Origin: an uncultured Rhodospirillaceae bacterium | GTDB lineage: Bacteria > Pseudomonadota > Alphaproteobacteria > UBA11136 | NCBI GenBank assembly: GCA_964486105.1 | Contig: CAZAKR010000013.1 | Coordinates: 537 to 64,536 of the forward strand | DNA: 64,000 nucleotides | Direction of reading: 5' to 3' | In this document: in pieces, positions 22,426 to 56,913 of the stretch | Numbering within the stretch: the stretch's first letter is position 1 | How the letters are laid out: every line of letters begins with the position of its first letter | Translations under genes and position numbers: made by a program | The notes under the pieces: model-generated | The model's input: only the letters and a program-made list of their open reading frames with translations | What the model was told of the DNA's origin: nothing | Databases searched by the model: none

Positions 22426-22569
22426 AAAGAATTCCAAGGCTCCAGGCGCGGCATGATAAAGACAGATCACCTTAAGCTTGGTCGGAGGCGTCGGTGATAG
22501 TCTGTCTTACCCTCTTTATATTCCTGCCCGCAACCCTTCCAAAACCGGGTCGGAGACCATATATTAGTC

Positions 22570-22870
22570 CAGTCGGGCAACCGACTATGACGATAAACGT
22601 TATGCTCACTACCCGTTACGGACCCGGGGGCAGTACCCGGCGCCTCCACCATTTCCCATATCGGGCCTTCTCGGCGGCCTTTATAAACCGAATGGGGGCG
22701 AACCAGGATCGACGTGCGTGGAAACGGTATGACTTTCGTTCGGCATGGTACCCACCGTTATCGGGCCAATCGTTAGTTGCGAACGATAATCAAATCGCAC
22801 TCGCTGCTTAGTTTCTAGGCAAGCGCGGTTCGGGGGGCACCGGGCAACAGAAGCCCCCCACTTGATACGA
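22570..22870 (+). ncRNA. ssrA: tmRNA (ssrA) in circularly permuted two-piece alphaproteobacterial form. The acceptor piece ends ...CGCCUCCACCA at about 22650. The coding piece starts GGGGGCGAACCAGGAUCGACG at about 22693 and encodes tag ANDNQIALAA* (GCG...TAG 22778-22810)
   Basis: The 5' strand GGGGGCG pairs with the 3' strand CGCCUCC, giving a G3:U70 wobble (the AlaRS identity element) before ACCA. The CCA-bearing strand lies upstream of the 5' strand, which is the permuted gene order. A T-arm-like CCGGG-GGCAGUA-CCCGG precedes the CCA strand. The tag reading frame ends in the canonical ALAA. The outer boundaries are approximate. Confidence 0.75.
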
Positions 22871-22904
22871 ATTGTTTGTGATTAGGAAATTCAAGCGCAA
22901 AACC

Positions 22905-36191: not shown

Positions 36192-37506
36192 TTTCTAGCT
36201 GTTTTTTTGTTTTCAGCCCCGGTGGCGGCGGGCCGCCGCTGGCCCAATCGAGAAGCTCCACCGTATGGGCAAGGGGCCCATCCACATGGGCCGCCATCTG
36301 AACCAGACAGCCGATATTACCCGCTGCGATCACCCGCACCCCGAGATTTTCGAAATGCCCCGCCTTGCGTGCGCCGAGCTGTCCGGCCAATTCGGGCTGA
36401 AGCAGGTTATAGGCGCCAGCCGAGCCGCAACACAGATGAGCCTCATCGGGTTCAACAATTTCAAACCCGGCGTCCTTCAAAAGCGTCATCGGTTCGGTCG
36501 CGATCTTTTGGCCGTGGCGCAGGGAACAGGCGGCCAGATAACCCACCCGCAACCCGTTTACCGGCGAAACCGCCGGCCTTTGAAAACCAATCTCAGCCAT
36601 GATTTCGCTGACATCGCGGGCCAGAGCCGATATTGCGGCGGCGCGCCCGGCCCATTGGGCATCGCCGCTTAAGAGAAACCCGTAATCCTTGACCATGGTG
36701 CCGCACCCCGAAGCATTGATAACAATGGCGTCGAGGCCGCCCTCAGTGATCACGCTCTCCCAGGCCGCCACATTGGCGCGCACAGAGGCGAGCGCCGTCT
36801 CAACCTCTCCCATATGGTGAGCCAGCGCGCCGCAACAGCCCTGATCTGCGGCAACGACCACCTCAAGACCATGACGGGTCAGCAGACGGATGGTGGCGGC
36901 GTCAATGGCCGGGCGCAGGGTTTCCTGGACACAGCCGGTAAGAAGCGCCACCCGCATCCGCCGCTCGCCTTCGGCCGGATAAATGCCGGGACCGGGAGGA
37001 GAATCAGACTTGTCGCTAAATCCGGCAGGCGGCAGCAGAGCCGGGAAGGCCCCCAGGCTTTTAGGCAGAAAGCGGCTGAAAGGAGCCGCCAGACGCGCCA
37101 GAGCGAGCAGCGGCCGCATAAGCCCCGGCCGGGGCAGCACCGCCAGGATGAAACGGCGCAACCGTCTCTCTCCCCGGGGGCGGGTATGGGTGGCCGCCAC
37201 GTGCCCCCGGGCATGGTCGATAAGATGCATGTAATTCACCCCTGAGGGACAGGTGGTCATGCAGGACAGGCAGGACAGACAACGGTCAAGATGGCGCACG
37301 ACTTCCTTTGATGCCGGTTTATCCCCTTCCAGCATATCCTTGATGAGGTAAATGCGCCCGCGGGGCGAATCCAGCTCATCACCGAGAAGGACATAGGTCG
37401 GACAGGTGGCAAGACAGAACCCGCAATGGACGCAGGTGCGCAGGATCCGCTCCATTTCCTGTAAATCGCCATCGGCCAGACGGGCCAGGCTGAAATTAGT
37501 CTGCAT
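36115..37506 (-). CDS. glcF: Glycolate oxidase iron-sulfur subunit GlcF
   Basis: Two 4Fe-4S ferredoxin motifs (CVHCGFCLATCP, CLSCLSCMTTCP) and CCG domains are present. The listed 3' end overlaps pyk by 77 nt. Confidence 0.9.
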   Translation of the reverse strand: MQTNFSLARLADGDLQEMERILRTCVHCGFCLATCPTYVLLGDELDSPRGRIYLIKDMLEGDKPASKEVVRHLDRCLSCLSCMTTCPSGVNYMHLIDHARGHVAATHTRPRGERRLRRFILAVLPRPGLMRPLLALARLAAPFSRFLPKSLGAFPALLPPAGFSDKSDSPPGPGIYPAEGERRMRVALLTGCVQETLRPAIDAATIRLLTRHGLEVVVAADQGCCGALAHHMGEVETALASVRANVAAWESVITEGGLDAIVINASGCGTMVKDYGFLLSGDAQWAGRAAAISALARDVSEIMAEIGFQRPAVSPVNGLRVGYLAACSLRHGQKIATEPMTLLKDAGFEIVEPDEAHLCCGSAGAYNLLQPELAGQLGARKAGHFENLGVRVIAAGNIGCLVQMAAHVDGPLAHTVELLDWASGGPPPPGLKTKKQLEIIPRRGRRRLAGYLSRPRCRREPRR

Positions 37507-37519
37507 ACCGCCCTGCCCC

Positions 37520-38770
37520 TCACACGCCTTCGTACATGCGGCCGGGGTTAAAGATGTGGAGAGGGTCGAAGCTCTCCTTTACCCGCGCCGTCAGCGCTTT
37601 TAGGGAGATGGGCTGGGGCTGGAAAACCTGGGTACCGGCCCGCAGGGCGGGAGAACCGCGAAAAAGCAGGGCCTGCCCCCCCATGGCTTCCCCCCGCGCC
37701 TCAAGGGAGCGGCGAATGACCGCCGCCCCGCCATCGCCTTCGAGCGGCGGCGAATCGGGGGCCAGCCAGACAAGCCCGCCGCCCCAATCGTAAAAAACGC
37801 GTGAGGGAAATTTTTCCCTCACATCCGCGACAAGGCCGGGGGCCTGGGATGGGGGCAGCGACAGGCGCCATAAAAGATTTTCCCCCCCCTTCCCGTCCCC
37901 GGGCAAAAACGGCGTCACATCGCGGATATTGCGCCAGAAAACATCACAATCGGCACCGCTCAATTCATCGCTTTTCCCAAACTCCGAAAGCAGGGTTGAA
38001 AGGCTGCGGCAGCGCTCGGCGACCGAGGGTGCGGGGCCTTCGACCCGCAGCGCCGTCGTGCCGCCAGAGGAGATGGCAGATATTGCAGTGGCCAGAGGAA
38101 CCCCGGCCGGTAAATGGGCGGCAGCGGAAACCCCTCCATCACTTTTCAGGGCCTCGGTCATCGCCGCAAGCGCCGATACATCATCAAGGCCGGAAAGAAA
38201 GACGGTGCGGGTGGTTTCCGCCACGGGCATCACCTTAAAGGTGAGTTCGGTCATCACCGCCAGAGTGCCGTGGGACCCGGAGAGAAGTTTGCACATATCG
38301 TAACCGGTGACATTTTTGACCACACGGCCGCCTGAGAAAATGGCCTCACCCCGGCCGTTGACCATCTTCAGCCCGAGCAAATGGTCGCGCGCCGCGCCGG
38401 TGTGAATACGGCCAGGCCCGGAGATATTATCGGCAAAAATGCCGCCGATCGTCGCCTTTCCAGCTTGCCCCCCGAAGAGCGGCCCGTAATCGGCGGGCTC
38501 GAAAGCCAGACGCTGGCCTTTTTCCAGAAGTCGTCGCTCAACCTCGGCCAGCGGCGTGCCCGCCAGGGCCGACATCACCAGTTCGCCGGGCTCGTAAAGG
38601 GTGACCCCTGAGAGCCCGCTCAGATCAAGCCTGTGTTCCGTATCCAGGGGCCGCCCGAGCCCCCGCCTGGTCCCCGCCCCGGTGATCTCCAGGGGCGTTT
38701 TACCAGCCGCAGCCCAGGCAACGATTTCCCTTACCTGTTCAGGATTTGTGGGAGAGAAGATTTCCACCAT
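37520..38770 (-). CDS. glcE: Glycolate oxidase FAD-binding subunit GlcE
   Basis: A 416-aa FAD-binding PCMH domain sits between glcD and glcF. Confidence 0.85.
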   Translation of the reverse strand: MVEIFSPTNPEQVREIVAWAAAGKTPLEITGAGTRRGLGRPLDTEHRLDLSGLSGVTLYEPGELVMSALAGTPLAEVERRLLEKGQRLAFEPADYGPLFGGQAGKATIGGIFADNISGPGRIHTGAARDHLLGLKMVNGRGEAIFSGGRVVKNVTGYDMCKLLSGSHGTLAVMTELTFKVMPVAETTRTVFLSGLDDVSALAAMTEALKSDGGVSAAAHLPAGVPLATAISAISSGGTTALRVEGPAPSVAERCRSLSTLLSEFGKSDELSGADCDVFWRNIRDVTPFLPGDGKGGENLLWRLSLPPSQAPGLVADVREKFPSRVFYDWGGGLVWLAPDSPPLEGDGGAAVIRRSLEARGEAMGGQALLFRGSPALRAGTQVFQPQPISLKALTARVKESFDPLHIFNPGRMYEGV

Positions 38771-40258
38771 CTAGAAGCGCGGCAAATCCGGGAAAGGCAG
38801 CTTTCCCTCGTGAACGTGAACGCGACCGAGCTCCACACAACGATGGAGGGTTGGGAAAACCTTGCCGGGATTGAGAAGAGATTTGGGATCGAAGGCGCAT
38901 TTCACCCGCTGCTGCTGGTTTAAATCCTGCTGGCTGAACATCTCTTCCATCAGATCCCGCTTTTCCACCCCGACCCCGTGTTCGCCGGTCAACACGCCGC
39001 CGACTTCGACACAGAGTTTGAGGATATCGGCGCCTAAAGCCTCGGCCTTTTCCAGCTCACCCGGCACATTGGCGTCATAGCAGATCAGAGGGTGAAGATT
39101 GCCGTCCCCGGCATGAAAGACATTGGCGATCCGCAACCCGTAAGACCGGGACATCTCATTCATCCTTTTGAGAACTTCCGGCAGGCGGCCCCGGGGAATG
39201 GTCCCGTCCATGCAGTAATAATCGGCGGCGATCCGCCCGATCGCAGGAAAAGCCGCCTTGCGCCCGGCCCAGAAACGCTCTCGTTCCTCGTCACTGGCAC
39301 TGGCCTTTATGGTCGTCGCATTACGGGTTTCGGCGAGCTTTGAGATAAGCCCGACAAGGTAATCAACCTCGCTTTGCGGTCCATCCAGCTCGACGATAAG
39401 CAGGGCCTCTACGTCGAGGGGATATCCGGCATGGACGAAGTCTTCGGCGGCATGAATGGCCGGACGGTCCATCATCTCCATACCGGCGGGAATGATCCCC
39501 CCGGCGATGATGTCGGCGACACAGGCCCCGGCAGATTCTACTTCCCCAAAGCCAAGCAGCAGGGCGCGGGCGGTCGCCGGTTTCCTTAATATCCGCACCG
39601 TCACCTCGGTGACGACGCCCAAGAGCCCCTCCGATCCCGTCAAAAGGCCGAGCAAATCGTATCCCCCGGCATCAAGATACCGCCCACCCAGGCGGATCAT
39701 GTCGCCGTTTATCAGAACCACCTCAATCCCGAGCACGTTATTGGTCGTCAGGCCGTATTTGAGACAATGAACGCCGCCGGAATTCTCGGCAATGTTGCCA
39801 CCGATCGAACAGGCGATCTGGCTCGATGGGTCCGGAGCGTAATAGAACCCCTCTCCTTCGACGGCCTGGGTAATCGCCAGATTTGTCACGCCGGGCTGGG
39901 CGACAACGCAACGGTTGGCGTAATCGACTTCAACGATCCGGTTAAGTTTTCCCGTGCCTAAAAGAATCCCGTCGGCAAGGGGAAGAGCGCCACCCGAGAG
40001 CGAGGTCCCCGCCCCGCGGGGCACCACCTTTATGCTATTCTTGTGGCAATACTGAAGGACAAGCGCGACCTGGGCCGACGTTCGGGGCAGGGCAACGATC
40101 ATCGGCATCTGACGATAGGCCGTCAGGCCGTCACATTCATAGGCCCGGCGCTCGTCTTCACCGGTCAAGAGAGAGCCGGGGGGAAGAATATCCCCCAGAT
40201 CCGCAATGAACTCTTCCCGGCGCTCTAATATGCGACGATCCGGATCGGGCATCCGCAT
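38771..40258 (-). CDS. glcD: Glycolate oxidase subunit GlcD (FAD-linked oxidase)
   Basis: The 495-aa protein has FAD-binding type 4 and FAD-oxidase C-terminal domains. Confidence 0.9.
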   Translation of the reverse strand: MRMPDPDRRILERREEFIADLGDILPPGSLLTGEDERRAYECDGLTAYRQMPMIVALPRTSAQVALVLQYCHKNSIKVVPRGAGTSLSGGALPLADGILLGTGKLNRIVEVDYANRCVVAQPGVTNLAITQAVEGEGFYYAPDPSSQIACSIGGNIAENSGGVHCLKYGLTTNNVLGIEVVLINGDMIRLGGRYLDAGGYDLLGLLTGSEGLLGVVTEVTVRILRKPATARALLLGFGEVESAGACVADIIAGGIIPAGMEMMDRPAIHAAEDFVHAGYPLDVEALLIVELDGPQSEVDYLVGLISKLAETRNATTIKASASDEERERFWAGRKAAFPAIGRIAADYYCMDGTIPRGRLPEVLKRMNEMSRSYGLRIANVFHAGDGNLHPLICYDANVPGELEKAEALGADILKLCVEVGGVLTGEHGVGVEKRDLMEEMFSQQDLNQQQRVKCAFDPKSLLNPGKVFPTLHRCVELGRVHVHEGKLPFPDLPRF

Positions 40259-42040: not shown

Positions 42041-42115
42041 TGGTGGGCGATACTGGGATTGAACCAGTGACCCCCTCGATGTCAACGAGGTGCTCTCCCG
42101 CTGAGCTAATCGCCC
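42041..42115 (-). tRNA. tRNA-Val (anticodon GAC) with genomically encoded CCA
   Basis: The hand-folded sequence is GGGCGAT-TA-GCTC-AGCGGGA-GAGC-A-CCTCG-TTGACAT-CGAGG-GGGTC-ACTGG-TTCAATC-CCAGT-ATCGCCC-A-CCA. It has a 7-bp acceptor stem, D, anticodon and T arms, and a T-loop TTCAATC. Confidence 0.9.
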
Positions 42116-42299: not shown

Positions 42300-42620
42300 G
42301 TCTAGGGAGCAAGCACCTTTACGGTGCCAAGCAATGCCGGCCATTCGGGGGGGGGGAGATAGAGTGGCCAGATATCGCGGTGCACAAAATTACATTTCAC
42401 GTTCGCAATTGCAACATAAATTTTCTATATGACTGATATTTTTATCACAAAACGCAATATGCTGTGTAGAATTAAGACCTTATCCCAAGTTAATTTTGCG
42501 TCGCAACATCACTCAGCATGGCCTTTTTTTGCTGTTTTTTACCTTCAGGCTGCGGTTAAAGCGCTCTTGACCCCGGTCGCCGCGCCGGTCATGCTTTTTA
42601 TTAAAAGAAGGCGGCGGTTC

Positions 42621-43067
42621 ATGCAGTTTCCTCAAAAAATAAGGTCATTTTGCTTTCAGCCACGGGCCGGTACGCTCTTTTCACCTGTTTTAATGGTCGG
42701 AACCCTTTGCATGATCGCCCCGACCCCCTCCCCGGGCGCCCAGTCCGGTGAGAGCATGGGAACAGATGCGCAGAATCAACTTTGCGCCAAATATATCGCC
42801 CATTATCAGAAAACAGAAAATATTCCCAGCCACCTCCTGACCGCCATTTCGCTGGTTGAATCAGGTCGCTGGGACAGCAATAAAAAACAAAAATTCGCCT
42901 GGCCCTGGACAGTCATGGCCGAAGGAAAGGGAGTATTCCTGCCAACCAAGGCCGAGGCCGTGGCAAAAGTTAAGGGACTACAAAAAAGGGGGGTCTCAAA
43001 CATCGATGTCGGCTGCATGCAGGTTAATCTAACCCGGTCAATCAGTTGCTTGTCGCGACACTGCTGA
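42621..43067 (+). pseudogene. Truncated lytic transglycosylase (SLT-domain) gene, cut after the GxMQ(V/I)N motif
   Basis: A signal-peptide-like start is followed by LTAISLVESGRWD...AWPWTVMAEG...GCMQVNL, after which the reading frame runs into an unrelated tail and stops. Confidence 0.5.
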
Positions 43068-43792
43068 AAAAAGAAGGGCATCGAGTCGATGTCGTCGGCG
43101 ATGGCCATGAGGCGGTGGAAGCCGTCCGTCGCCTTCCCTATGACCTTGTTCTCATGGATGTGCAAATGCCGGAAATGGATGGCATTGAGGCAACCTCCGC
43201 CATTCGCGGCCTGCCCGGTTCGTGCAGTAATATCCCCATCATCGCGGTTACGGCAAATGCGATGAAGGGTGACAAAGAAAGCTATATCGCCGCCGGCATG
43301 AACGACTACCTTTCCAAGCCTGTAGATCAGGACAAACTAAAAGAGTTGGTGCGGAAATGGGGCGCAAAGAATGAGGCGCCATCCAAAAGCACCCCAGAAG
43401 TTTCAGCCGAGGATGATTCTTCCGTGATGCCCAAAGAGACCGTCAACATGGCCATCCTTGATGAACTTGAAATAACCATCGGCGCGGATAACCTTGCCGA
43501 TCTTCTTGACCAGCATATTTCAGATGCCAGGGAACGGATGCAGAGAATGCGCTTTGCCGCCCGTAAGGGGGATGCGAACTCACTGGGCCAGGAATCCCAC
43601 AACCTTAAAAGCACGTGTGGAAGTTTTGGCGCCAAGCGGGTTCAACTAATTGCTCAAGAGATAGAAACAGCGAGTATAAACCAGCGCCAGGAAAAGGCCT
43701 TCAACCTGATACCAAAGCTGACGGAAGAACTCAGTGCATCACTTGAGATTCTCGAGCAACGAAAAAAACTGCTTCTTGAAAAGACGCCTTGA
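43046..43792 (+). pseudogene. 5'-truncated response-regulator receiver plus HPt domain fragment (hybrid histidine kinase C-terminal remnant)
   Basis: The REC domain begins mid-fold (LVATLLKKEGHRVDVVGDGHEAVEAV...LVLMDVQMPEMDG) and lacks beta1 and the DD pair. The HPt motif is ESHNLKSTCGSFGA. Confidence 0.55.
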
Positions 43793-43807: not shown

Positions 43808-46800
43808 CTATCCCAGGGCACCGATAAAATGGGTAATGCCTGTTCCAATACGACGAATGCAGTCGTAGAGGTTTGAAATCGGCCTGAATATCAGATCATG
43901 CTCCTGAGCATAACTCTGTATATCTTCACTGCGATAAGTTGCCCTCTCCCCGAAGTCTCCAGAGATCGTTTTTGGCACCGTTGGCGGAAAAATCTCTTCA
44001 AGCACTTCAATTGTCTCGGGCACATCGAGAGAAAGCAGCCTTGAAAGTATTTCCTCCCTGGTCACGCCGGTCTGCAAACTGAATTCCGGAATCCGGGTTG
44101 AGAGAAGATAGAGTTCGTGGATAAGGGCAAGACGGATTCCATGCAAGAGCAGAAGGTCATCCCTGACCTTTTTTGGAATGACGCGACCCCGCCCAACGGC
44201 CAGATGTCCGGAAAAATCCCGTCCCAGAAGCCAGCCGCGGATCTCCATATATTCCTTCTGGAAGACCCGGTATATGCGGACAAGCTTTTCGTGAAACCCG
44301 GCCTCTTCAAGGGTGCCGGCGAGCTTGATCATATCATCGCTGCGGGCCTGGTTGGATGTACGTCCGGCGCGTGAGAGCCAACGACCGGGATCGAAAGTAT
44401 CAATATAGGCTTTGAATACCTCTACTTCGCTGTACGCAAAGGCGTATTCGACCATTTTCATCACCCGCCTGAAACGTGGCGAGGAGTCATAAAGAGACTG
44501 GAATTTTTCAGGATTTTTGCGATAGACCTGGCCAACACCACCAAGCGTATTCGCCAGCATACCGAATTGCTGAAGTATGGCGTTTTGCGGTATCGCCCTG
44601 GTCTGGGAGGGATGGGCAAACAGTGATGTCCCCGCCCCGCCCTCATGCTGGCGCTTTACCGGGCGGGAGCCCGAAGGATAGAGCATATTGGTGCCGAACG
44701 CCCCGAGCAGGGCGGCATAATCCGGATCGTCCATGACCTGGCAGTTAAACTGCTTGATGGTATTGACGATCTCGGCGGCATAATCCGCTTCTTCGTAAAA
44801 AGGATCTTTCTCGGCCTCGTCCGATGAGGTCAACATAGTTTCGAGGATTCGCGTCACCACAGCATAGGACGCCGTCTCGTTCATAAAATATTGATAGCCA
44901 TCCCCGCCCTGGAAACTGATCTCTTCCTTAAAGGGCAGTTGACTATCCTCAAATGTCTTTCTCGAATAAGGCGAGGCCAGATAATGCAGGCGATCGACCA
45001 GACTGACGGGATGCCCCCCCCGGCCGATGGATTCACCATGGGTGTCGAAAATAACAAGCTGGACCCCCTCTAGCCCGTGACGGGCGAGAATACGACCGAT
45101 ATTGAGATGCAGATTCTCAATCGAAAGGGTGGCGGCCACCTGACCGAGATGCCGGCCGGCGTCAGAAAAACCAGTCTGGATGCAGAGCCGCTGGCGTTTT
45201 TTCACATAAGCCCGGTAATGGGGATTTTCGAGGACCTCTTCGATCACCTTATGGCCGCGCGTCAGAGCCACCTCAGTTTCGAAAAGGGGAGAAATGTCGA
45301 TTTTATCCTCAACCCCGAACAGCTTGGCGAAATAAAGCGCGGTGAGCAGAGTGAAGGAGGTTTCACATTCGGCAATGAGAAAGCGGACCGGGGTCGTTGT
45401 ATCCACATATTTGAGCATCTGGGCGACGATCATAAAGAGCCGCTTACCCGACATCTGCTCAGCCAGGATAGAACCGAAATTTATGCTTGCCGGTTTTGTC
45501 CGGCCAATGAGCTTATTAAGGGCATTGTTATAGGTCGCGCCATTAGTCGGGTCATCCGGCGAGGTTTCCATGCCAATCGCCTTGCGGATCGAGTTATGAA
45601 GCTGTGAAGCGTTAATCCGCACATGAGTGCGCGCCATGCCAAGGCCGTAATTGGTCAACTCTGCGCGGAGAACGCACAACCCATGGACACGTTTGGCCCC
45701 GATGGTGTTCTCGCGGCACTGGTCGATCGCCGTGTTGATATAGTCGATAAGCTCAGTTGACTCGACAAGACGCCGGGACCGCCCCTCGTGCATCTGTTTG
45801 GCGATCAAACGAATTTTTTCATCGTGAGAGGATTCCCTTGATTCATAGGCGCCAAAAACTTCCATTTCCTCGCTGATTTCATCAATGGCTAGTTTCAACC
45901 GCGATTGAAGCTTGGCGAGGGTTTTCCGCAACGGCTTGTTGGTGCCGGGCTTTTTATTGATCGCAATAATTTTCCGCACCGAATCGAGATAGTGCTGGAG
46001 CTGGAACAGCTGTACCCGAAGACGTTTATAGAGAGTGTCTGTCCAGTTGATGTCGGAGCGTCCATCAATGTCATAGCCGACCCAACTGGCGACAGAGAGG
46101 AGTTTTGGCGCCAGATCCTTGGCCTGGCCGGGGTAAAGATCCTCTGCGACCCAGAAAATCACGTCATAAGCGCGGCGCATGGCCGCCTGAAGGTTGGTAA
46201 TCGCTTCCAAAGAGAGGGCATGTTCCTGAGCCAGATCAAGATCCTTGTCCGGGCGGTGCTCCTTCCCCATCGCCGACTTGAAAATCGCCTTTTGCCGGAC
46301 TGAGGTAAGCGTCTTGCCGGCGCTGTTACGACCGGTGGCCAGGGCGACAAGCTCATGCATTAAATCGCCGGTAATGCTGAAAGTAGGATGGGCGGTAAAG
46401 ACGATCCCTAAGAGTTCCTGCTCGACCCGCGCCTTGAATTCATCAAAAGGAACGGGGGTGCCCTTACCCTTTCTCTGCTTTCCTGTTTTCTGCTTTCCGG
46501 CAGGGAAAGCCAATGCCATCACCACCTTGCGCAGCAATTTATCGTTTTTATCGGGATCCAGTTCGCCAAGATAATCCCCCATACGCTCAGCTCTCAGGGC
46601 GAAGGTATTGGCCGTCAGGCGCTGAATAAGGGATTCAATCGCCGAATAGGACAGAGTTCCCTTTTCCAGCCGCCGCGAGATATCAAGAGCCAGCATCATA
46701 ATCGAATTGCTGAAGGGATCTTCATCAGCGCCGGCGCGAATCCGGTCGAGGTCTTTGCACAGATCGTCCCTAAGCCTTCCCGTGTTGATCCCCTTACGAA

Positions 46801-46951
46801 CGGGAAAACAGGCGTCACCCTTGGGAACCAGCGTACCTTTGTCCCCATCAAGTAATTTTGTCAGCTGGACACGGAGCCCTTTTCTGCTTTTTGTCATGTT
46901 CTCTTTTTTCCGCAATCCGGATTTTACGGGTTCCGGTTTTTTTGCCATCAA
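43808..46951 (-). CDS. Divergent phosphoenolpyruvate-carboxylase-family protein (PEPcase fold, 1047 aa) with non-canonical residues in key motifs
   Basis: PEPC landmarks are collinear: VFTAHPTF (canonical TAHPTE), SWVGYDIDGRSDINWT (SWMGGDRDGNPNVT), RTHVRINASQ (LVRIDIRQES), ISPLFETEVALTRG (APLFETLDDL), GFSDAGRHLG (GYSDSAKDAG), FDTHGESIGRGGHP (FHGRGGSIGRGGAP) and RAIPQNAILQQFG (RAIPWIFAWTQNR). The C-terminus ends ...RRIGTGITHFIGALG rather than ...RNTG. Confidence 0.75.
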   Translation of the reverse strand: MMAKKPEPVKSGLRKKENMTKSRKGLRVQLTKLLDGDKGTLVPKGDACFPVRKGINTGRLRDDLCKDLDRIRAGADEDPFSNSIMMLALDISRRLEKGTLSYSAIESLIQRLTANTFALRAERMGDYLGELDPDKNDKLLRKVVMALAFPAGKQKTGKQRKGKGTPVPFDEFKARVEQELLGIVFTAHPTFSITGDLMHELVALATGRNSAGKTLTSVRQKAIFKSAMGKEHRPDKDLDLAQEHALSLEAITNLQAAMRRAYDVIFWVAEDLYPGQAKDLAPKLLSVASWVGYDIDGRSDINWTDTLYKRLRVQLFQLQHYLDSVRKIIAINKKPGTNKPLRKTLAKLQSRLKLAIDEISEEMEVFGAYESRESSHDEKIRLIAKQMHEGRSRRLVESTELIDYINTAIDQCRENTIGAKRVHGLCVLRAELTNYGLGMARTHVRINASQLHNSIRKAIGMETSPDDPTNGATYNNALNKLIGRTKPASINFGSILAEQMSGKRLFMIVAQMLKYVDTTTPVRFLIAECETSFTLLTALYFAKLFGVEDKIDISPLFETEVALTRGHKVIEEVLENPHYRAYVKKRQRLCIQTGFSDAGRHLGQVAATLSIENLHLNIGRILARHGLEGVQLVIFDTHGESIGRGGHPVSLVDRLHYLASPYSRKTFEDSQLPFKEEISFQGGDGYQYFMNETASYAVVTRILETMLTSSDEAEKDPFYEEADYAAEIVNTIKQFNCQVMDDPDYAALLGAFGTNMLYPSGSRPVKRQHEGGAGTSLFAHPSQTRAIPQNAILQQFGMLANTLGGVGQVYRKNPEKFQSLYDSSPRFRRVMKMVEYAFAYSEVEVFKAYIDTFDPGRWLSRAGRTSNQARSDDMIKLAGTLEEAGFHEKLVRIYRVFQKEYMEIRGWLLGRDFSGHLAVGRGRVIPKKVRDDLLLLHGIRLALIHELYLLSTRIPEFSLQTGVTREEILSRLLSLDVPETIEVLEEIFPPTVPKTISGDFGERATYRSEDIQSYAQEHDLIFRPISNLYDCIRRIGTGITHFIGALG

Positions 46952-47165
46952 GATACTCCGTAATTATGATTGTTTTGCCTCTGACACCCTGATCAGGCGG
47001 ACGGGTAAGCGTCTCTTTAGCCTGAGAAACGCAATATTTCCACCCTTACCCCGGGGCCGGGGCCGCCCGCATTGATTTAGACCGGAAAATCCGCCCTCAC
47101 AAGGCCGGGATGCCTATTTTCGCAAATCTGCTATTATTTTCAGCCAGATTACTCTTTAAAGCCCT

Positions 47166-47579
47166 ATGCATAGCATTAAAACAGAACCGGATGGAGGTTC
47201 TTTGAAAGCCCCGCGCATTACGATCATTACACCCTGCCTGAATGCTGCGCCTTTCCTGTCGGAGGCCCTTGAAAGCGTTGTGAATCAATGTGTTACAGGT
47301 ATGGAGCATATGGTTCTGGATGGCGGCTCAACCGACGGCACTCTGGATATTCTAAATTCCTTTCCCGGCCTGCGTGTCGTCAATGGACCCGATCGGGGCT
47401 CTCATGATGCGATGAATAAGGGAGTGGAATTGGCCAAGGGGGATATCATCGGCTTTCTCAATGCGGACGACACCTATGAGGTTGGCGTTTTTACCGATAT
47501 TGCCATGCATTTTGCCGCAAATACGCCGCCTAATATCTTGAATCAGATGAGCAGATCCTCCTTTAGATCAGGCCGGTGA
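47166..47579 (+). pseudogene. Family 2 glycosyltransferase N-terminal fragment (137 aa, truncated)
   Basis: The GT-A N-terminus ITIITPCLNAAPFLSEALESV...LDGGSTDGT...FLNADD is present, but the ORF stops about 100+ aa short of a complete GT2 domain. Confidence 0.5.
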
Positions 47580-47890: not shown

Positions 47891-47939
47891 AGTGCCGGTT
47901 AATCTCACCCCCGGAACGTTTCACAAAGCACAAAACATA

Positions 47940-49199
47940 ATGAGCCAAACCATAAAAACCCTCAAGGAAGAGCCCCTCCTGTTCCTGGCGGCAACCGTGT
48001 TGACCGGCATTGCCGTACCGCTTTCGGCATTTGGCATCGTCTTTATTCAGGCCGCCCTGGGGCTTGCTCTTATTCTGCTGCTTTGCATTGCATACAAAGA
48101 TACTGGGTTGAGAAATCGGTTTTCCATCCCGCTAAAAACACCGCCGGGAATAGCCCTGCACATAACCTTTGCAATCTGGTTTGTTGTGACGCCATGGTCC
48201 ACGGATTTCGGCGAATCGTTCACGACGGTTCTTCGAACGGCTCTTTATATTCTGGGCTCAATCCTGATCTGGGCTTTCTTGAGTGTATCGGAAAGCAGAG
48301 TGCGGCTGGCGCTTGTCTGTCTGATGGGCGCATCCACCCTCTCCATAGGAATTGCCGCCTTTTGTCTTCTGTTTCCCGAAACAAGTGACCCCATTCTAAA
48401 CGCCCTTCATAAGAGGCAGACCGATTCTATACATTTCTTCAAGGCATATGCTGCCGCCTCAGTCTGTTTAATTCCCGTTTTGATCTGGGCCGGTGGAAAA
48501 CTGGGCAAGAGATGGTCTCGGCTTGGGTGGGGATTGGCGCTGCCAGCCCTATTCATTATTATTGCCACGTCCAATAGGGCCGCCATTGCCGGACTTGTCG
48601 CAGTGCTTTTCATATTAATTGTGCTTATGGTCTGGAACAGAAGCCGTCTGCTGTCTCTTGTCGTTATGATGGCTATCCCGGCTATTGTTCTCCCCTGGGT
48701 GTGGTGGACACGCCGCTTGCTTCCCGGCGCTTCAACCGATTTCATGCCGGCCTGGCTGGTCGACAGCCACCGTCAGTTTATCTGGCAGTTTACGCTCGAA
48801 AAATTTTCCGATTCACCCTGGGCCGGATGGGGCGCCAACCGGATCAATTTTGCCCCGGGGGCCGACACCTATAGCACCGAACTCAAAGGGATTTATATCT
48901 CTTCCCACCCCCATAACTGGATTCTGGAAATTCTGTCGGAGTGCGGTATTTTCGGCCTCACTGCCCTTCTGATTGCCCTGGGGCTGCTGGCCTGGCGTCT
49001 GATCCTTGCCTATAACCGGACAAAGGATTCCGCCTATCTGGCGCTGATCACTTTAAGCACGGCCTTTTTCGCTTCCAGTCTCTTCAACTTTTCGATCTGG
49101 TCAACTTGGTGGCTGCTGACTTATTTCGTGTTGTTTGCCATAATATCGGCCAGTCATGGAAAGCCGTTTGTCATCAAGAAGATCCTAACGGAAAGTTGA
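47940..49199 (+). CDS. O-antigen ligase/polymerase family (Wzy_C domain) polytopic membrane protein
   Basis: The protein has about 10-12 TM helices and a large periplasmic loop. The start is the ATG at about 47940 (MSQTIKTL); the listed ORF begins at 47892. Confidence 0.7.
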   Translation: MSQTIKTLKEEPLLFLAATVLTGIAVPLSAFGIVFIQAALGLALILLLCIAYKDTGLRNRFSIPLKTPPGIALHITFAIWFVVTPWSTDFGESFTTVLRTALYILGSILIWAFLSVSESRVRLALVCLMGASTLSIGIAAFCLLFPETSDPILNALHKRQTDSIHFFKAYAAASVCLIPVLIWAGGKLGKRWSRLGWGLALPALFIIIATSNRAAIAGLVAVLFILIVLMVWNRSRLLSLVVMMAIPAIVLPWVWWTRRLLPGASTDFMPAWLVDSHRQFIWQFTLEKFSDSPWAGWGANRINFAPGADTYSTELKGIYISSHPHNWILEILSECGIFGLTALLIALGLLAWRLILAYNRTKDSAYLALITLSTAFFASSLFNFSIWSTWWLLTYFVLFAIISASHGKPFVIKKILTES

Positions 49200-49200
49200 A

Positions 49201-51216
49201 ATGAACCTTCCTTGCGTCAGCGTCGTCATCCCTGTCTACAACCGGGCCAAGCTTATCGGCCGGGCGCTAGAGAGCGTATTCACGCAGAGTTTCCAGGATT
49301 TTGAGGTGATCATCGTTGATGACGCTTCGACGGATGATCTTGGAACGGCGCTGAAACCCTTCGACGACCCGCGCATGCAGATCGTTACCCACGAAAAGAA
49401 CAGAGGCGCCGGGGCGGCGCGCAATACGGGCATCCGTGCATCAAGAGGCAAATACATCGCCTTTCTCGATTCCGATGATGAATGGACAAGGCGCAAGCTG
49501 GCGCGGCAGGTTGCCTATCTCGAAACGGCCCCTGATACCACGCCTCTCGCCTGCACCGGGTTTTTCATGGATCATTCTACCGACCAGAAGGTTTACGCAA
49601 CCAAGTTAGCTGAAACGACGTTTGATCTCGATATGATTTCTCAGGGCAGCCATACATGCCTCGCCACGACCCTGATGATTAGACGGTCCTGCTTCGATGA
49701 GATGAGCCTCTATGACGAAGGTTTGCCCTGTCTTGAAGTTTGGGATCTTCTCTTAAGGTTTGCCAGGCGATGGTCGATTGGCGTCATCGGCGAACCGATG
49801 GCCTGGATTCACTTTTACAAATCCCCCCCCACCGAAACCATGGGCAGGGCTATTGAACATTTCCAGGAGAATCATCGGGAATACTTGCGCACCCACAATC
49901 GACATGCGGCAACTTATCTTGAAGCCGCCATTACCAAGGAAAGGCTGGAAATATTTTACAGGAACCAGCAATTTAAGGATTCTTTAAAACTTGCTTTCTC
50001 TCTCCTCCTTAAATCCCCTTGGTTGTCCCTAGCCACCATCAAGAAAACAACTGGCGCCATTCTTCACTACATTTTATTCCGCCATAAAAAGAAAACACTT
50101 GCTACATTTGATAAAGAACCAAAAATTCTTCACGTCATTTCTTCACTTCAGACAGGAGGAGCTGAAGGGATGTTGACTTCTCTTCTCCTGCACTCCAAAG
50201 GCGGCCAAGAACATATACAGGTTGCAGTTCTTTATCCTGGGGGAGCTAACTTAGAAAAACTTTTAGAAGCGGGATATACGGTCTTAAGCCTTGGAACAAA
50301 AAGAATCATATACACGCCAATCTCTCTTCTTCGCCTGATAAGGATCATACGGCTTGAACAGCCGGATATTATTCACAGCTGGTTGTATCATGCTGATCTG
50401 ATTTCGACACTTGCCCTCTATCTATCCGGAAGACGTATAAAAACGAAATTGATCTGGGGTATCCGCTGTTCGGATATGAATCTTTCAAACTACTCCCCCT
50501 TTTTACGCTTGTCGGTTTGGCTCTGCCGCCTGCTGTCCACTCTTCCCGATATGGTTACGGCTAATTCCCGCGCGGGAAGAGATTTTCACATTGAAATGGG
50601 CTATAAGCCAAAGCGGATTGAATTATTTGAAAACAGCTACGACCTCTCACTATTCACTCGCTCCCAAAAAGCCAGAAAAAAGATACGGCAACAACTGGAC
50701 ATTCCGGAAGATGCCATTGTTGTCATCGCAGTTGGCCGCAACGATCCCATGAAATCCTGGCCGACCTTTATAGAGGCCTTCTCGGCTAGCGGGGAGATTT
50801 TTGGGATTGTTGCCGGATCTGGGACTCTTGACCTTCCAGACCTGCCCAACCTTAGGCGCCTGGGAAGACGCAATGACGTGCCCGATCTTTTAGCCGCCAG
50901 CGATATTTTTGTTTCTTCTTCAGCCTTTGGCGAGGGGTTTTCCAATGCCATTGCGGAGGCAATGGCCTCCGGCCTACCCGTTATTGCCACGGATGTGGGA
51001 GATTCGGCCTATATTGTTCAAGAGGGGGGAATTATTGTTTCACCTATGAATCCTGGTCAAATCAGTTCTGCTATCTGCAGCCTAGCTGGCGATCCAGACC
51101 TAAGAATGTCGATGGGACAGTATGGAAGAGAACGTATTGCCACTCGATACAATATAGAGGAAGCATCAAGAAAATTATTAAAGTTTTATGATCGATCCAA
51201 TGTCGAAGTCATCTGA
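49201..51216 (+). CDS. Bifunctional glycosyltransferase with an N-terminal GT2 (GT-A) and a C-terminal GT4 (GT-B) domain
   Basis: The N-terminus is VSVVIPVYNRAKLIGRALESVFTQSFQDFEVIIVDDASTDD...FLDSDDEW. The C-terminus is KILHVISSLQTGGAEGMLTSLL...EGFSNAIAEAMASGLPVIATDVG. Confidence 0.8.
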   Translation: MNLPCVSVVIPVYNRAKLIGRALESVFTQSFQDFEVIIVDDASTDDLGTALKPFDDPRMQIVTHEKNRGAGAARNTGIRASRGKYIAFLDSDDEWTRRKLARQVAYLETAPDTTPLACTGFFMDHSTDQKVYATKLAETTFDLDMISQGSHTCLATTLMIRRSCFDEMSLYDEGLPCLEVWDLLLRFARRWSIGVIGEPMAWIHFYKSPPTETMGRAIEHFQENHREYLRTHNRHAATYLEAAITKERLEIFYRNQQFKDSLKLAFSLLLKSPWLSLATIKKTTGAILHYILFRHKKKTLATFDKEPKILHVISSLQTGGAEGMLTSLLLHSKGGQEHIQVAVLYPGGANLEKLLEAGYTVLSLGTKRIIYTPISLLRLIRIIRLEQPDIIHSWLYHADLISTLALYLSGRRIKTKLIWGIRCSDMNLSNYSPFLRLSVWLCRLLSTLPDMVTANSRAGRDFHIEMGYKPKRIELFENSYDLSLFTRSQKARKKIRQQLDIPEDAIVVIAVGRNDPMKSWPTFIEAFSASGEIFGIVAGSGTLDLPDLPNLRRLGRRNDVPDLLAASDIFVSSSAFGEGFSNAIAEAMASGLPVIATDVGDSAYIVQEGGIIVSPMNPGQISSAICSLAGDPDLRMSMGQYGRERIATRYNIEEASRKLLKFYDRSNVEVI

Positions 51217-51262
51217 CTGATGTTCTGCCTATTCAATAGCGAGAGCCAGATCAAGCGAGTAA

Positions 51263-52222
51263 ATGAAAGCCACACAAAACATATCAAGATTTGCCTTAAT
51301 TGGCGCAGCCGGCTACATAGCACCCCGGCATATGCAGGCGATCAAGGAAGTTGGTGGCGACCTTGTCGCTGCGTTTGATCCGGCTGACAGTGTTGGCGTG
51401 ATCGACAGCCATTTTCCCGAGGCCCGCTTTTTCACCGAGTTTGAACGCTTCGACCGTCATATAGACAAGTTGCACCGTGCTGGTGCCAAGGTCGATTATG
51501 TGGCGATTTGTTCACCCAACTATCTGCACGACGCGCATGTGCGTTTTGCGTTGCGTTCAGATGCAGATGCCATATGTGAAAAGCCCCTGGTTCTTAACCC
51601 CTGGAATCTTGATGGCTTGGCCGAAATGGAAAAGCACACTGGCAAGCGGGTCTACACCATTTTGCAATTGCGCCTGCATCCCGCGATTATCGCGCTGAAG
51701 GAACGCATCGACAGCCAGCCCGCGGATAAGGTGTTTGATGTGGATTTGACTTACATCACGTCGCGCGGGCGTTGGTACCACGTTTCGTGGAAAGGGGATG
51801 AAGATAAGTCCGGCGGCATTGCCGGTAACATCGGCGTTCATTTTTACGACATGTTGGAATTTGTCTTTGGTAACCTTAAGGCCAATCATGTTCACCTGCA
51901 CACACCAACCCATGCTGCGGGGTACCTGGAGTATGAACGCGCCCGGGTACGGTGGTTCCTGTCCGTTGATCGCAACGATTTGCCCGAACACACAGCCGAA
52001 GGCCAAACCACCTACCGCTCCATCACCGTGGATGGGTCCGAGGTTGAGTTCTCAGGTGGGTTCACAGATTTACATACATTGAGCTATCAAGATGTGCTGA
52101 ACGGCGGTGGCTTCGGTATTGATGACGTTCGTCCAAGCATCGAGGTTGTTTCCTACATTCGCACCGCTGATTTAGAACCCAACAAAGGCGATATGCACCC
52201 GTTCGCCAAAGATAGGAGCTGA
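51263..52222 (+). CDS. wbpB: UDP-N-acetylglucosaminuronate 3-dehydrogenase-like oxidoreductase (Gfo/Idh/MocA family, WbpB homologue)
   Basis: FALIGAAGYIAPRHMQAIKEVGG...ICSPNYLHDAHVRFALRSDADAICEKPLV...YTILQLRLHPAIIALKERI closely parallels Pseudomonas WbpB. Confidence 0.8.
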   Translation: MKATQNISRFALIGAAGYIAPRHMQAIKEVGGDLVAAFDPADSVGVIDSHFPEARFFTEFERFDRHIDKLHRAGAKVDYVAICSPNYLHDAHVRFALRSDADAICEKPLVLNPWNLDGLAEMEKHTGKRVYTILQLRLHPAIIALKERIDSQPADKVFDVDLTYITSRGRWYHVSWKGDEDKSGGIAGNIGVHFYDMLEFVFGNLKANHVHLHTPTHAAGYLEYERARVRWFLSVDRNDLPEHTAEGQTTYRSITVDGSEVEFSGGFTDLHTLSYQDVLNGGGFGIDDVRPSIEVVSYIRTADLEPNKGDMHPFAKDRS

Positions 52223-52225
52223 TCC

Positions 52226-52810
52226 ATGGGCAACGCGCCGGATATGGAAGGCGTTTCAATTCATGAAAGCGCCTATGTGGATTTGCCATGTACCATCGGT
52301 GTGGGAACGAAAATCTGGCATTTTTCCCATGTCTTGCCCAACACCTCAATCGGTGAGGGCTGTGTGTTGGGTCAAAACGTCGTGGTGGGGCCAGATGTCA
52401 CTATTGGTAATAAAGTCAAAATTCAAAACAATGTCAGCATCTATAAAGGCGTAACACTGGAAGACGGTGTGTTCTGTGGACCGTCGTGCGTCTTCACAAA
52501 TGTGAATAATCCGCGTTCCGAGATTAACCGCCAAGATGAGTTTCGCCCGACGCTGGTCAAGCGCGGCAGCACGATCGGTGCCAATGCGACCATCGTTTGC
52601 GGTCATACATTGGGTGAATATTGTTTTATTGCCGCCGGCGCCGTGGTGGGCGGGGATGTTCCAGATTTTGCTTTGATGGCTGGAGTTCCCGCTAAGCGTA
52701 TCGGTTGGATAAGCCGCGCCGGTGTAAAACTGGGTGATGATCTGACCTGTTCCCAAGATGGCAGCAAATACAGCCTTAATAGTGACGGCTTGCTGGAGGC
52801 TGCGGACTGA
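52226..52810 (+). CDS. wbpD: Sugar N-acetyltransferase with a left-handed beta-helix (hexapeptide repeat), WbpD-like
   Basis: Hexapeptide repeats are visible ([48 protein letters not shown]). Confidence 0.8.
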
Positions 52811-52812
52811 TC

Positions 52813-53955
52813 ATGCCCATCCCCTTTATCGATTTACAAGCCCAGCGCCGCGCTATGGGGTCTGCCCTAGATGAGGCCATGGCGCGCGTGCTGGACCGTG
52901 GTGACTTTATCCAGGGCCAAGAGGTCCGTGAATTTGAAGCCGCACTGGCTACCTTCACCGGCGCGGGCCATGTGGTGAGTTGCGCCAGCGGCACCGATGC
53001 GCTGACCTTGGTGGGTATGGCTGAAAACATTGGCCCGGGCGATGCGGTGTTCGTGCCGGCGTTTACGTTTGTCGCCACCGCAGAGGCATTCACTGTCTTG
53101 GGTGCAACGCCGTACTTCGTAGACGTGCTTCCTGATACGTTCAATATGAACCCTGAAAGCCTTCAGGATGGCATTGCCGACGCCAAAGCTCAGGGGCTCA
53201 ACCCGCGTATGGTCGTGGCGGTGGACTTGTTCGGACAACCCGCCGATTACAATCGCCTTGCGCCCATTGCCCATGAAAACAATATGATTTTGGTCGCCGA
53301 TGCCGCTCAGGCGCTGGGTGGGTCTTTGGGTGGAAAACGCGTCGGTACATTGGCCGATTACACCACCACCAGCTTTTTCCCCGCCAAGCCCTTGGGCTGT
53401 TACGGCGATGGCGGTGCGGTGCTGACGGACGTTGCCGATAAGGCTGCATTGATCAAATCTTTGACCCAACACGGTAAGGGTAGTGAAAAATACGATAATT
53501 TGCGCGTTGGCCTCAACAGCCGCCTAGACACCTTGCAGGCGGCTATTTTGATCGAGAAGCTGAAAATTTATGAAGGCGAGTTGCGGGCCCGAAATGATGT
53601 GGCCCAACGCTATTCAGGCGCGCTTAGCGAGATTGCCCAGACCCCGTATCTGTTGGCCGACACACAGTCGTGTTGGGCGCAATACACTTTGAAGTTTGAA
53701 CACCGTGAAACAGCACAAGAAAACCTCAAAAATGCGGGCGTTCCCAGTGCCGTCTATTACCCCATGCCGTTAAGTCAGCAGGGTGGTTATACACAATGCC
53801 CTGTGGTGCCAGGCGGCGTTTTAGTCTCAGAACGCCTGTCCGGTCAGGTTTTGAGTTTACCGATGCACCCGTATTTGGATACTGATACACAAAGCACCGT
53901 CATCAACGCCTTAAAGGCCGCTGTTGGCGCCCCTCACCACCGCCTTAAATCTTGA
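52813..53955 (+). CDS. wbpE: DegT/DnrJ/EryC1/StrS-family PLP-dependent sugar aminotransferase (WbpE-like)
   Basis: The 380-aa protein shows the fold-type I aminotransferase pattern (DAAQALG, SFFPAKPLGCYGDGG). Confidence 0.9.
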   Translation: MPIPFIDLQAQRRAMGSALDEAMARVLDRGDFIQGQEVREFEAALATFTGAGHVVSCASGTDALTLVGMAENIGPGDAVFVPAFTFVATAEAFTVLGATPYFVDVLPDTFNMNPESLQDGIADAKAQGLNPRMVVAVDLFGQPADYNRLAPIAHENNMILVADAAQALGGSLGGKRVGTLADYTTTSFFPAKPLGCYGDGGAVLTDVADKAALIKSLTQHGKGSEKYDNLRVGLNSRLDTLQAAILIEKLKIYEGELRARNDVAQRYSGALSEIAQTPYLLADTQSCWAQYTLKFEHRETAQENLKNAGVPSAVYYPMPLSQQGGYTQCPVVPGGVLVSERLSGQVLSLPMHPYLDTDTQSTVINALKAAVGAPHHRLKS

Positions 53956-53962
53956 GAGTGAT

Positions 53963-54958
53963 ATGGATATTCGTGGGAAGAAACTTGTTCTAATTGGTGG
54001 TGCCGGGCTTATCGGTTCCCACACAGCGGACTTGCTGGTTCAGGAAGACGTTGGTGAAATCGTTATTTATGACAATTTCGTGCGTGGGCGAGAAGAAAAC
54101 CTTGCCAATGCGCTACGCGATCCGCGTGTTCGGATTTTTGATATTGGCGGGGATATTTGCCAGACAGACATTTTGAACGAAGCGTTGAAGAATGCCGATG
54201 GTGTGTTTCACTTCGCAGCTTTGTGGCTGTTGCAGTGCCATGACTTCCCACGTTCCGCATTTGACGTAAACGTGACGGGTGCCTTCAACGTCATGGAAGC
54301 TTGCCATCAGAACGATGTGGGGCGTCTGGTTTATTCCTCGTCAGCGTCAGTTTATGGCGATGCTGTTGAAGAGCCGATGAACGAAGATCATCCCTTCAAT
54401 AATAAAAATTTCTACGGCGCGACCAAGATAGCCGGTGAGGCCATGTTGCGCGCTTTTCATTTTCGTTATGGCCTGCCTTTCGTTGGGCTGCGTTATATGA
54501 ATGTTTACGGACCGCGTCAGGATTATCAGGGCGCTTACATTGCGGTCATTATGAAGATGCTCGACGCCATTGATCAGGGGCAGGGGCCGACGGTCATGGG
54601 GGACGGTAGCGAGGCATTTGACTTTGTTGCCGTCGAAGATTGCGGTCTTGCAAATGTGTGCGCCATGAAAGCAGGCAGTGTTGATCGTTTCTATAACGTT
54701 GGCACTGGCAAGCGAACCTCGTTAAAGGAATTGGCAGAAATGCTTGTCGACCTGACCGGCACGGATCAAGAAATTCAATACGCGCCCCGCAGTCAAGCAA
54801 CGTTGGTGCGCAACCGTATTGGCTGCCCAAAACGCGCCAAAGATGAAATCGCCTTTGACGCAGAAATCGAATTGCGTGAGGGCCTGCAAAAGCTCATCGA
54901 TTGGCGGAAAAGCCATATTGAAGAAGTCGAAGCGCGGCGCAGTAAAGCGCGCATTTAG
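53963..54958 (+). CDS. NAD-dependent epimerase/dehydratase (SDR) acting on sugar nucleotides
   Basis: The start is the ATG at about 53963 (MDIRGKKLVLIGGAGLIGSH). The YGATK catalytic motif is present. Confidence 0.85.
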   Translation: MDIRGKKLVLIGGAGLIGSHTADLLVQEDVGEIVIYDNFVRGREENLANALRDPRVRIFDIGGDICQTDILNEALKNADGVFHFAALWLLQCHDFPRSAFDVNVTGAFNVMEACHQNDVGRLVYSSSASVYGDAVEEPMNEDHPFNNKNFYGATKIAGEAMLRAFHFRYGLPFVGLRYMNVYGPRQDYQGAYIAVIMKMLDAIDQGQGPTVMGDGSEAFDFVAVEDCGLANVCAMKAGSVDRFYNVGTGKRTSLKELAEMLVDLTGTDQEIQYAPRSQATLVRNRIGCPKRAKDEIAFDAEIELREGLQKLIDWRKSHIEEVEARRSKARI

Positions 54959-54972
54959 AGGGCAATAGCTAA

Positions 54973-56853: not shown

Positions 56854-56913
56854 ACATGCTCGTTGGACAACACTGACAAAAGTTGGTTTCGCGACTAGGG
56901 GGAAAAGCATCAG

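Follow-up and report, generated by a model that had tools for sequence, protein, structure and literature searches.

What does an enzyme do when it keeps the fold of phosphoenolpyruvate carboxylase (PEPC) and replaces several of the residues on which PEPC catalysis depends? The question is raised by a gene on the minus strand of a 64,000-nucleotide stretch of DNA from an uncultured Rhodospirillaceae bacterium (contig CAZAKR010000013.1, positions 537 to 64,536; hereafter the window). A preliminary description, made from the sequence alone, saw in it a PEPC-fold paralogue that may have lost carboxylase activity or changed function. We find that the gene is intact and under strong purifying selection, and we are highly confident that its product (the window protein) represents a third, deeply branching lineage within the PEPC superfamily, widespread in Alphaproteobacteria. 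The reading we favour, with moderate confidence, is that this lineage still carboxylates phosphoenolpyruvate (PEP).

Results

The window protein matches the Pfam family PF00311 (PEPcase) with 84 bits (gathering cutoff 22.4) over residues 168-855, and profile-profile alignment to PEPC with hhalign gave a probability of 100 over 812 columns at 17% identity. An AlphaFold (AF2) model built from a 59-sequence family alignment had a predicted local distance difference test score (pLDDT) of 85.8 and a predicted template modelling (TM) score, pTM, of 0.89. The top matches of this model in a Foldseek search of the PDB were the PEPCs of E. coli, maize and Arabidopsis (13-15% identity). The best 50 matches were PEPCs without exception, with TM scores of 0.55-0.71; for E. 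coli PEPC (1JQN) the E value was 1.6e-19, the TM scores 0.60/0.70 and the identity 15%. The window protein is thus confirmed to have the PEPC fold over its full length, with identity in the twilight zone, and its proposed collinearity with PEPC stands. Searches with single sequences found far less: phmmer against the PDB recovered E. coli PEPC at E = 5e-8, with a match limited to the region from the PLFET motif to the Gly-rich loop, and tblastn with canonical PEPCs scarcely picked up the gene (best E 1e-4). The label PEPC fold is itself not new, since databases already name these proteins 'phosphoenolpyruvate carboxylase'.

The family models for the enzyme itself gave a different picture. On the NCBIfam PEPC equivalog NF000584 (EC 4.1.1.31) the window protein scored 87.5 bits, far below the curated cutoff of 815, whereas a canonical Sphingobium ppc scored 1015 bits and serine-cycle Ppcs 754-761 bits. 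The archaeal-type PEPC model PF14010 gave 11.1 bits, also below its cutoff (25). In a neighbour-joining tree (54 sequences, 920 columns, 100 bootstraps) the divergent group was monophyletic (100/100) and split into three subclades supported by 100 each; canonical and serine-cycle PEPCs, which share 29-38% identity, clustered together. Members of the divergent group are 13-20% identical to canonical PEPC and 15-20% identical to serine-cycle Ppc. The suspicion that the protein falls outside the ordinary bacterial PEPCs was therefore borne out by both the phylogeny and the equivalog score.

The lineage is large. An exhaustive HMMER scan of 1.84 billion representatives clustered at 50% identity returned 303 matches at E <= 1e-30 and 660 at E <= 1e-10, which puts its size at about 300 such clusters, spread over Rhodospirillales-like bacteria, Sphingomonadales, Hyphomicrobiales and some Burkholderia. 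Hundreds of full-length relatives (1010-1060 aa, 45-92% identical to the window protein) occur in Azospirillum, Nitrospirillum, Niveispirillum, Dongia, Inquilinus, Elstera, Kiloniella, Geminicoccaceae, marine single-cell genomes and many metagenome-assembled genomes (MAGs), and alphaproteobacterial genomes of about 2 Mb carry the lineage as well. The 90% cluster of the window protein bears the NCBI names 'MAG: Rhodospirillaceae bacterium'. One further subclade is made up of Methylobacterium, Methylorubrum, Bosea and Chelatococcus, and another of Methylobrevis, Hartmannibacter, Labrys, Prosthecomicrobium, Iodidimonas and many Sphingomonadales. By tblastn against plasmids and chromids we also found members 30-35% identical to the window protein in Burkholderia pyrrocinia, Methylobacterium bullatum, Sphingobium sp. 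TomTYG74 and Phyllobacterium zundukense, each with a PF00311 score of just 65-70 bits.

We mapped the active site with hhalign and MAFFT in 46 family members and eight reference sequences (E. coli numbering). H138, W248, R396, L504, E506, D543, R587, G588, R699, R703 and R713 are identical in all 46 members and all eight references. Against this background stand replacements that are equally characteristic of the lineage: E141F, K546R, R581H and A/G590H in 46/46, H579D/N in 46/46 (33 Asp, 13 Asn), and M538Q and G583E in 45/46. The altered motifs quoted earlier for this protein, including the loss of the first Arg of the Gly-rich loop, are all present at the coordinates of Table 1, and the mapping showed that not all active-site residues are conserved, seven positions being replaced. 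The canonical loop F-H-G-R-G-G-x-x-G-R-G-G is not matched by the window loop FDTHGESIGRGGH, in which R587 alone (Arg643 of the window protein) is kept; pLDDT falls below 50 at residues 641-646 of this loop, as expected for a mobile segment. A lineage-specific insertion of about nine residues follows GSRPVKRQ. Among 105 full-length representatives (50% clustering), T[AG]HPTF was found in 93, SDxGR in 101 and F[D/N]THGE in 86, and none of the 105 was intermediate toward the canonical motifs.

The C-terminus, where canonical PEPC ends in RNTG, was said to have diverged, and so it has in the R-N-T part; the terminal Gly, however, is retained, as it is in 101 of the 105 representatives. A global hhalign alignment forces the E. 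coli C-terminus onto residue 961 of the window protein. The MAFFT alignment, which pairs the terminal glycines, appears to be the better reading, backed as it is by this conservation. It places Ala at position L-2 instead of the aspartate-binding Asn881. The allosteric aspartate/malate site, formed in canonical PEPC by K773, R832 and N881 with R587, is not kept (K773 becomes Y/L/F/V, N881 becomes A in the MAFFT alignment and R832 is unaligned), with the reservation that the C-terminal alignment is partly ambiguous. The half of the site that binds PEP and metal is thus preserved, as are the two mobile loops and the terminal Gly, and the residues around the carboxyphosphate/bicarbonate half are systematically different.

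Table 1. Positions of the divergent gene, its active-site motifs and neighbouring features in the window (residues written out, such as Arg444, follow the window protein; equivalents in one-letter code follow E. coli PEPC unless joined by an arrow)
Feature	Position	Strand	Remarks
Divergent PEPC-lineage coding sequence	43808..46948	-	1046 aa; ATG at 46948, stop codon 43808-43810
GGAG Shine-Dalgarno sequence	46956..46959	-	7 nt upstream of ATG 46948; read from sequence
TAHPTF	46379..46396	-	His187 = catalytic H138, kept; Phe190 in place of Glu141, 46/46
Arg444	45617..45619	-	R396, PEP phosphate binding; invariant
PLFET	45275..45289	-	Glu557 = metal ligand E506, Leu555 = L504; both invariant
Gln591	45176-45178	-	precedes GFSDAGRHLG; takes the place of M538
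GFSDAGRHLG	45143..45172	-	Asp596 = metal ligand D543, kept; Arg599 for Lys546, 46/46
Gly-rich mobile loop FDTHGESIGRGGH	45011..45049	-	H579->D635 (family D or N), R581->H637, G583->E639, A/G590->H646
GSRPVKRQ (loop II)	44648..44671	-	Arg762 = R699, Arg766 = R703; both invariant
RAIP	44588..44599	-	Arg784 = R713; invariant
C-terminal GALG	43811..43822	-	protein ends ...FIGALG; terminal Gly kept
tRNA-Val	42041-42115		1.7 kb from the gene, two open reading frames between
Truncated family-2 glycosyltransferase (GT2) gene	47166-47579	+	137 aa; Pfam profile positions 1-106 of 168
O-antigen/lipopolysaccharide-type cluster	47892-57000	+	lower GC; GC at third codon positions (GC3) 0.51-0.61
Pyruvate kinase gene	34767-36191	+	in the range 3.5-9 kb from the gene
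glcD-glcE-glcF glycolate oxidase operon	36115-40258	-	in the range 3.5-9 kb from the gene

The open reading frame (ORF) from which the gene was described, 43808..46951 on the minus strand with 1047 codons, is real and opens at a TTG at 46951. Translation almost certainly starts one codon further in, at the ATG, which would give 1046 residues, because homologues begin at that Met (M2 of the longer frame, nearly invariant in the family alignment). Precisely this 1046-aa product is predicted as a gene on the 24 metagenome contigs that we read (57 index blocks list it), and its neighbours have the same arrangement on every contig recovered.

Could the gene nevertheless be a catalytically dead or decaying PEPC relic? 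The substituted canonical motifs and the truncated glycosyltransferase gene nearby would suit such a fate, which we consider very improbable. The ratio of nonsynonymous to synonymous substitution rates (dN/dS) was 0.064 (dS 0.58) against a 92%-identical orthologue and 0.126 against a 66%-identical one. The frame is uninterrupted, the identical protein recurs in many metagenomes and the structure was modelled with confidence. The replacement residues, too, do not vary across the roughly 300 clusters. These conservation data essentially refute a relic. The earlier suggestion of lost carboxylase activity fares no better, since fixed substitutions and a low dN/dS go together with invariant metal and PEP residues, H138, R587 and loop II.

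Horizontal acquisition had been proposed from the setting of the gene, described as alone between gene fragments next to a tRNA in a decayed low-GC region. The gene does stand alone; it is convergent with a receiver-Hpt fusion gene (43046-43792, plus strand), with 15 nt between the two stop codons. However, the truncated GT2 gene, probably a relic pseudogene bordering the polysaccharide cluster, is the sole clear gene fragment nearby, and the tRNA is not adjacent. The regional GC drop behind the word 'decayed' is due to the lower-GC O-antigen/lipopolysaccharide cluster, so that the word suits the neighbourhood and not the gene itself (GC 0.528). A recent arrival of the gene near tRNA-Val together with the polysaccharide cluster seems to us distinctly unlikely. 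In its favour, GC3 of the gene is 0.603, compared with 0.61-0.74 in the core genes at 5-40 kb of the window, tRNA-Val and the truncated GT2 gene lie within reach, the neighbours are not shared with the locus of the 66%-identical homologue, and the TomTYG74 homologue adjoins a phage-integrase fragment. Yet the shortfall in GC3 is slight, the value touching the lower end of the core range, no integrase or repeats were seen adjoining the gene, and the arrangement is fixed on all recovered contigs. The nearest relatives, with 66-92% identity, belong without exception to Rhodospirillaceae-like MAGs, and the window-type clade follows Rhodospirillales-like taxa.

Several features of the surroundings are recorded here in their own right. 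Upstream of the receiver-Hpt gene, and overlapping its start by 22 nt, is a 212-aa ORF (42429-43067, plus strand) without a Pfam match, whose extent differs between gene callers (118 or 212 aa). The O-antigen cluster encodes a Wzy_C ligase/polymerase, a 671-aa fusion of GT2 and family-4 glycosyltransferase (GT4) domains, a GFO oxidoreductase, a hexapeptide acyltransferase, a DegT aminotransferase, an epimerase and an AsnB-like amidotransferase. A permuted two-piece transfer-messenger RNA (22555-22902, plus strand; tag ANDNQIALAA) is consistent with an alphaproteobacterial host. Pyruvate kinase and glcDEF bear on the PEP/C2 node and share no operon with the divergent gene.

A stand-alone gene without an operon partner is usual for ppc. 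No conserved operon partner was found in 80 window-type loci, where the commonest neighbour cluster, an ABC ATPase, occurred in 15. In the other subclades genes of C2 or glycerate metabolism are repeatedly close by. In Hartmannibacter diazotrophicus, Methylobrevis pamukkalensis and P. zundukense, of the Hyphomicrobiales subclade, the divergent gene lies among oxalate-utilisation genes (frc/oxc/oxlT), in loci that encode a CoA transferase of the formyl-CoA transferase type, an oxalyl-CoA decarboxylase-like thiamine pyrophosphate enzyme, an oxalate/formate antiporter of the major facilitator superfamily and GntR regulators. The sucCD genes upstream of the Phyllobacterium homologue were tried as a malate thiokinase and ruled out, being 70% identical to housekeeping sucC and 52% to Aminobacter mtkA. 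On the TomTYG74 replicon AP027342.1 (locus L005, 3343-11522) we read genes for a dehydrogenase, a phosphotransferase-type kinase, a second enolase (eno_2), a hypothetical protein and the divergent protein. On the B. pyrrocinia plasmid NZ_CP150851.1 (locus L002, 1524-11882) the order is biotin carboxyl carrier protein, biotin carboxylase, PxpB, a PxpC-like protein, a second biotin carboxyl carrier protein, PxpA and a short-chain dehydrogenase/reductase (SDR), and the island continues with an RraA-family protein, the divergent protein and D-glycerate dehydrogenase; an amino-acid ABC transporter comes next. The genes of this accessory island have the look of a catabolic pathway, uncharacterised so far, in which the PEPC-like enzyme takes part. 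Taken together, these loci and the window, with glcDEF and pyruvate kinase within 9 kb, show a loose recurrent link with genes that feed PEP from C2 compounds or glycerate, which fits a PEP-to-oxaloacetate step and is no proof of one.

Some genomes hold the divergent gene beside a genuine PEPC gene. The M. bullatum record NZ_LR743510.1 carries a serine-cycle ppc (2189439-2191970) and the divergent gene (1019049-1021847), and AP027342.1 of TomTYG74 carries the canonical 1015-bit ppc and the divergent gene, there annotated 'hypothetical protein'. Methylorubrum extorquens likewise has a serine-cycle ppc plus the divergent gene, and the Methylorubrum version is 989 aa long. One of the 14 Sphingobium replicons with a canonical ppc also has the divergent gene. 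In Azospirillum, several species have a canonical ppc on a chromid, and other Azospirillum genomes have the divergent type. No second PEPC was detected by tblastn in the 64-kb window. The searched text of an M. extorquens genome-scale model gives a single C3-to-C4 reaction (PEP carboxylase) and discusses no second gene.

Such pairs bear on the main alternative: a neofunctionalised paralogue that binds PEP, or a related enol-phosphate, and a metal, and catalyses another reaction, or uses another mechanism, than canonical PEPC. Possible variants are a second metal at the D/N-x-H-x-E...H residues, another electrophile or another acceptor. The seven lineage-fixed substitutions concentrate in the bicarbonate/carboxyphosphate part of the site; four introduce side chains typical of metal ligands (D/N635, H637, E639 and H646), although that these act as ligands is speculation. 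Further points in favour are the true PEPC on the same replicon or record in TomTYG74 and M. bullatum, the universal presence of the divergent gene in Methylobacterium/Methylorubrum outside the serine-cycle cluster, and the accessory catabolic islands of Burkholderia (RraA-family protein, SDR, biotin carboxylase) and Sphingobium (second enolase and kinase). On the other hand, every mappable PEP, metal and carboxyphosphate residue is conserved, along with both mobile loops and the terminal Gly, and the 80 window-type loci offer no conserved partner gene that would hint at a new pathway. Two differently regulated PEPCs in one genome are, moreover, already known from M. trichosporium (Ppc1 and Ppc2; PMC3615186). 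We therefore hold neofunctionalisation to be possible and rather unlikely. The specific proposal that the carboxyphosphate/bicarbonate half has been re-engineered, either around a second metal at D/N635-H637-E639-H646 or for a PEP-dependent reaction other than bicarbonate carboxylation, we judge about equally unlikely.

Discussion

Our best explanation is that the intact gene encodes a working enzyme of a third PEPC lineage, uncharacterised so far, and with moderate confidence we take this enzyme to have remained a metal-dependent PEP carboxylase, free of aspartate/malate control. From the conserved residues we infer the reaction PEP + HCO3- -> oxaloacetate + Pi, which would serve anaplerosis. 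PEP and Mn2+/Mg2+ would be bound through E557/D596, R444, R762 and R784, and the carboxyphosphate/CO2 step would be carried out by His187 and Arg643 under the closing Gly-rich loop and loop II, with the C-terminal Gly completing the active site. The part formed in canonical PEPC by H579, R581, K546, E141 and M538 would have been rebuilt as D(N), H, R, F and Q, with an extra Glu and an extra His. Because the inhibitor site for aspartate and malate is absent, regulation must differ.

A set of observations weighs against a PEP carboxylase. The seven near-invariant substitutions strike residues that are regarded as universal in PEPC, among them the His and the first Arg of the Gly-rich loop. The PROSITE His pattern, which we take to be [VTI]-x-T-A-H-P-T-[EQ]-x2-R-[KRHAQ], matched 0 of 476 family proteins and 6 of 6 canonical ones; the Lys pattern, presumably ...M-x-G-Y-S-D-S-x-K-[DF]-x-G, matched 0 of 476 compared with 8 of 8 canonical and serine-cycle proteins, the corresponding motif of the window protein being QTGFSDAGRHLG. 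The serine-cycle Ppcs of M. bullatum and Aminobacter aminovorans keep TAHPTE, GYSDSNKDGG and FHGRGGSVSRGG and therefore provide no precedent for the divergent active site. The presence of the divergent gene together with a true PEPC in M. bullatum and TomTYG74 is compatible with a non-redundant, possibly different function. Finally, our literature searches found no paper that recognises, describes or assays the divergent lineage.

PEPC belongs among the textbook enzymes, and its catalytic residues are taken to be universal. Annotation pipelines pass on the PEPC name, with Enzyme Commission and Gene Ontology terms (carbon fixation, tricarboxylic acid cycle), on a Pfam match of about 70-85 bits; metabolic models and carbon-fixation inferences consequently rest on a presumptive assignment, in a lineage common in Methylobacterium/Methylorubrum, many Sphingomonadales, Nitrospirillum, Dongia, Inquilinus and marine Rhodospirillales-like plankton. 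If the protein is a true PEPC, H579, R581 and K546 are dispensable or replaceable, and engineering would gain an enzyme that is naturally insensitive to aspartate/malate. Otherwise a familiar name conceals a new PEP-dependent activity, and this would explain why the gene is retained beside genuine PEPCs in Methylobacterium and Sphingobium. A re-engineered carboxyphosphate half would amount to a mechanistically new class in a family thought to share one invariant catalytic apparatus. The most likely outcome is 'a divergent PEPC'.

Compared with canonical PEPC (E. coli Ppc, 1JQN/1FIY; the maize C4 enzyme), the window protein shares the full-length, collinear fold, the E506/D543 metal ligands, H138, R396, R587, R699, R703, R713, W248, L504 and the C-terminal Gly. 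It differs in being about 160 residues longer, through an N-terminal extension and insertions that include some 60 residues before the last helix, and in the seven replacements and the loss of K773 and N881.

Regulated anaplerotic PEPCs are set apart in the literature from the serine-cycle, 'non-regulated' Ppcs (PMC3615186), represented by M. extorquens ppc and M. trichosporium Ppc1. The latter resemble the window protein in being alphaproteobacterial, in that either type can be the second PEPC-family gene of a genome, and in lacking the aspartate-site Asn (C-terminus A/W-T-G in the serine-cycle enzymes, A-x-G in the divergent lineage). We ruled out that the family is itself serine-cycle Ppc, in view of the 15-20% identity, the separate clades (100/100 each) and the canonical motifs of the serine-cycle enzymes, which in M. 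bullatum and Aminobacter depart from canonical PEPC just at the C-terminal allosteric residues. Serine-cycle Ppcs, unlike the window gene, also sit in sga-hpr-mtkAB-ppc-mcl or glyA clusters. In M. bullatum the sga-hprA-...-mtkA-mtkB-ppc-mcl cluster contains a 919-aa Ppc (754 bits on the equivalog) and an mtkA product with 761 bits on the malate-CoA ligase model, and the ppc on the A. aminovorans plasmid (761 bits on the equivalog) adjoins glyA. No sga, hpr, mtkAB, mcl or glyA gene was found in the 64-kb window or in the 80 related loci; the divergent gene of M. bullatum lies outside the serine-cycle cluster, beside leuS and aroB, and that of Methylorubrum is likewise outside it.

The archaeal-type PepcA (PF14010) is a very divergent, proven PEPC lineage of about 530 aa. 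The window protein, at 1046 aa and with just 11 bits on that model, is no member of it. PepcA is nevertheless instructive, because a proven PEPC so divergent in sequence means that the PEPC reaction tolerates large sequence change.

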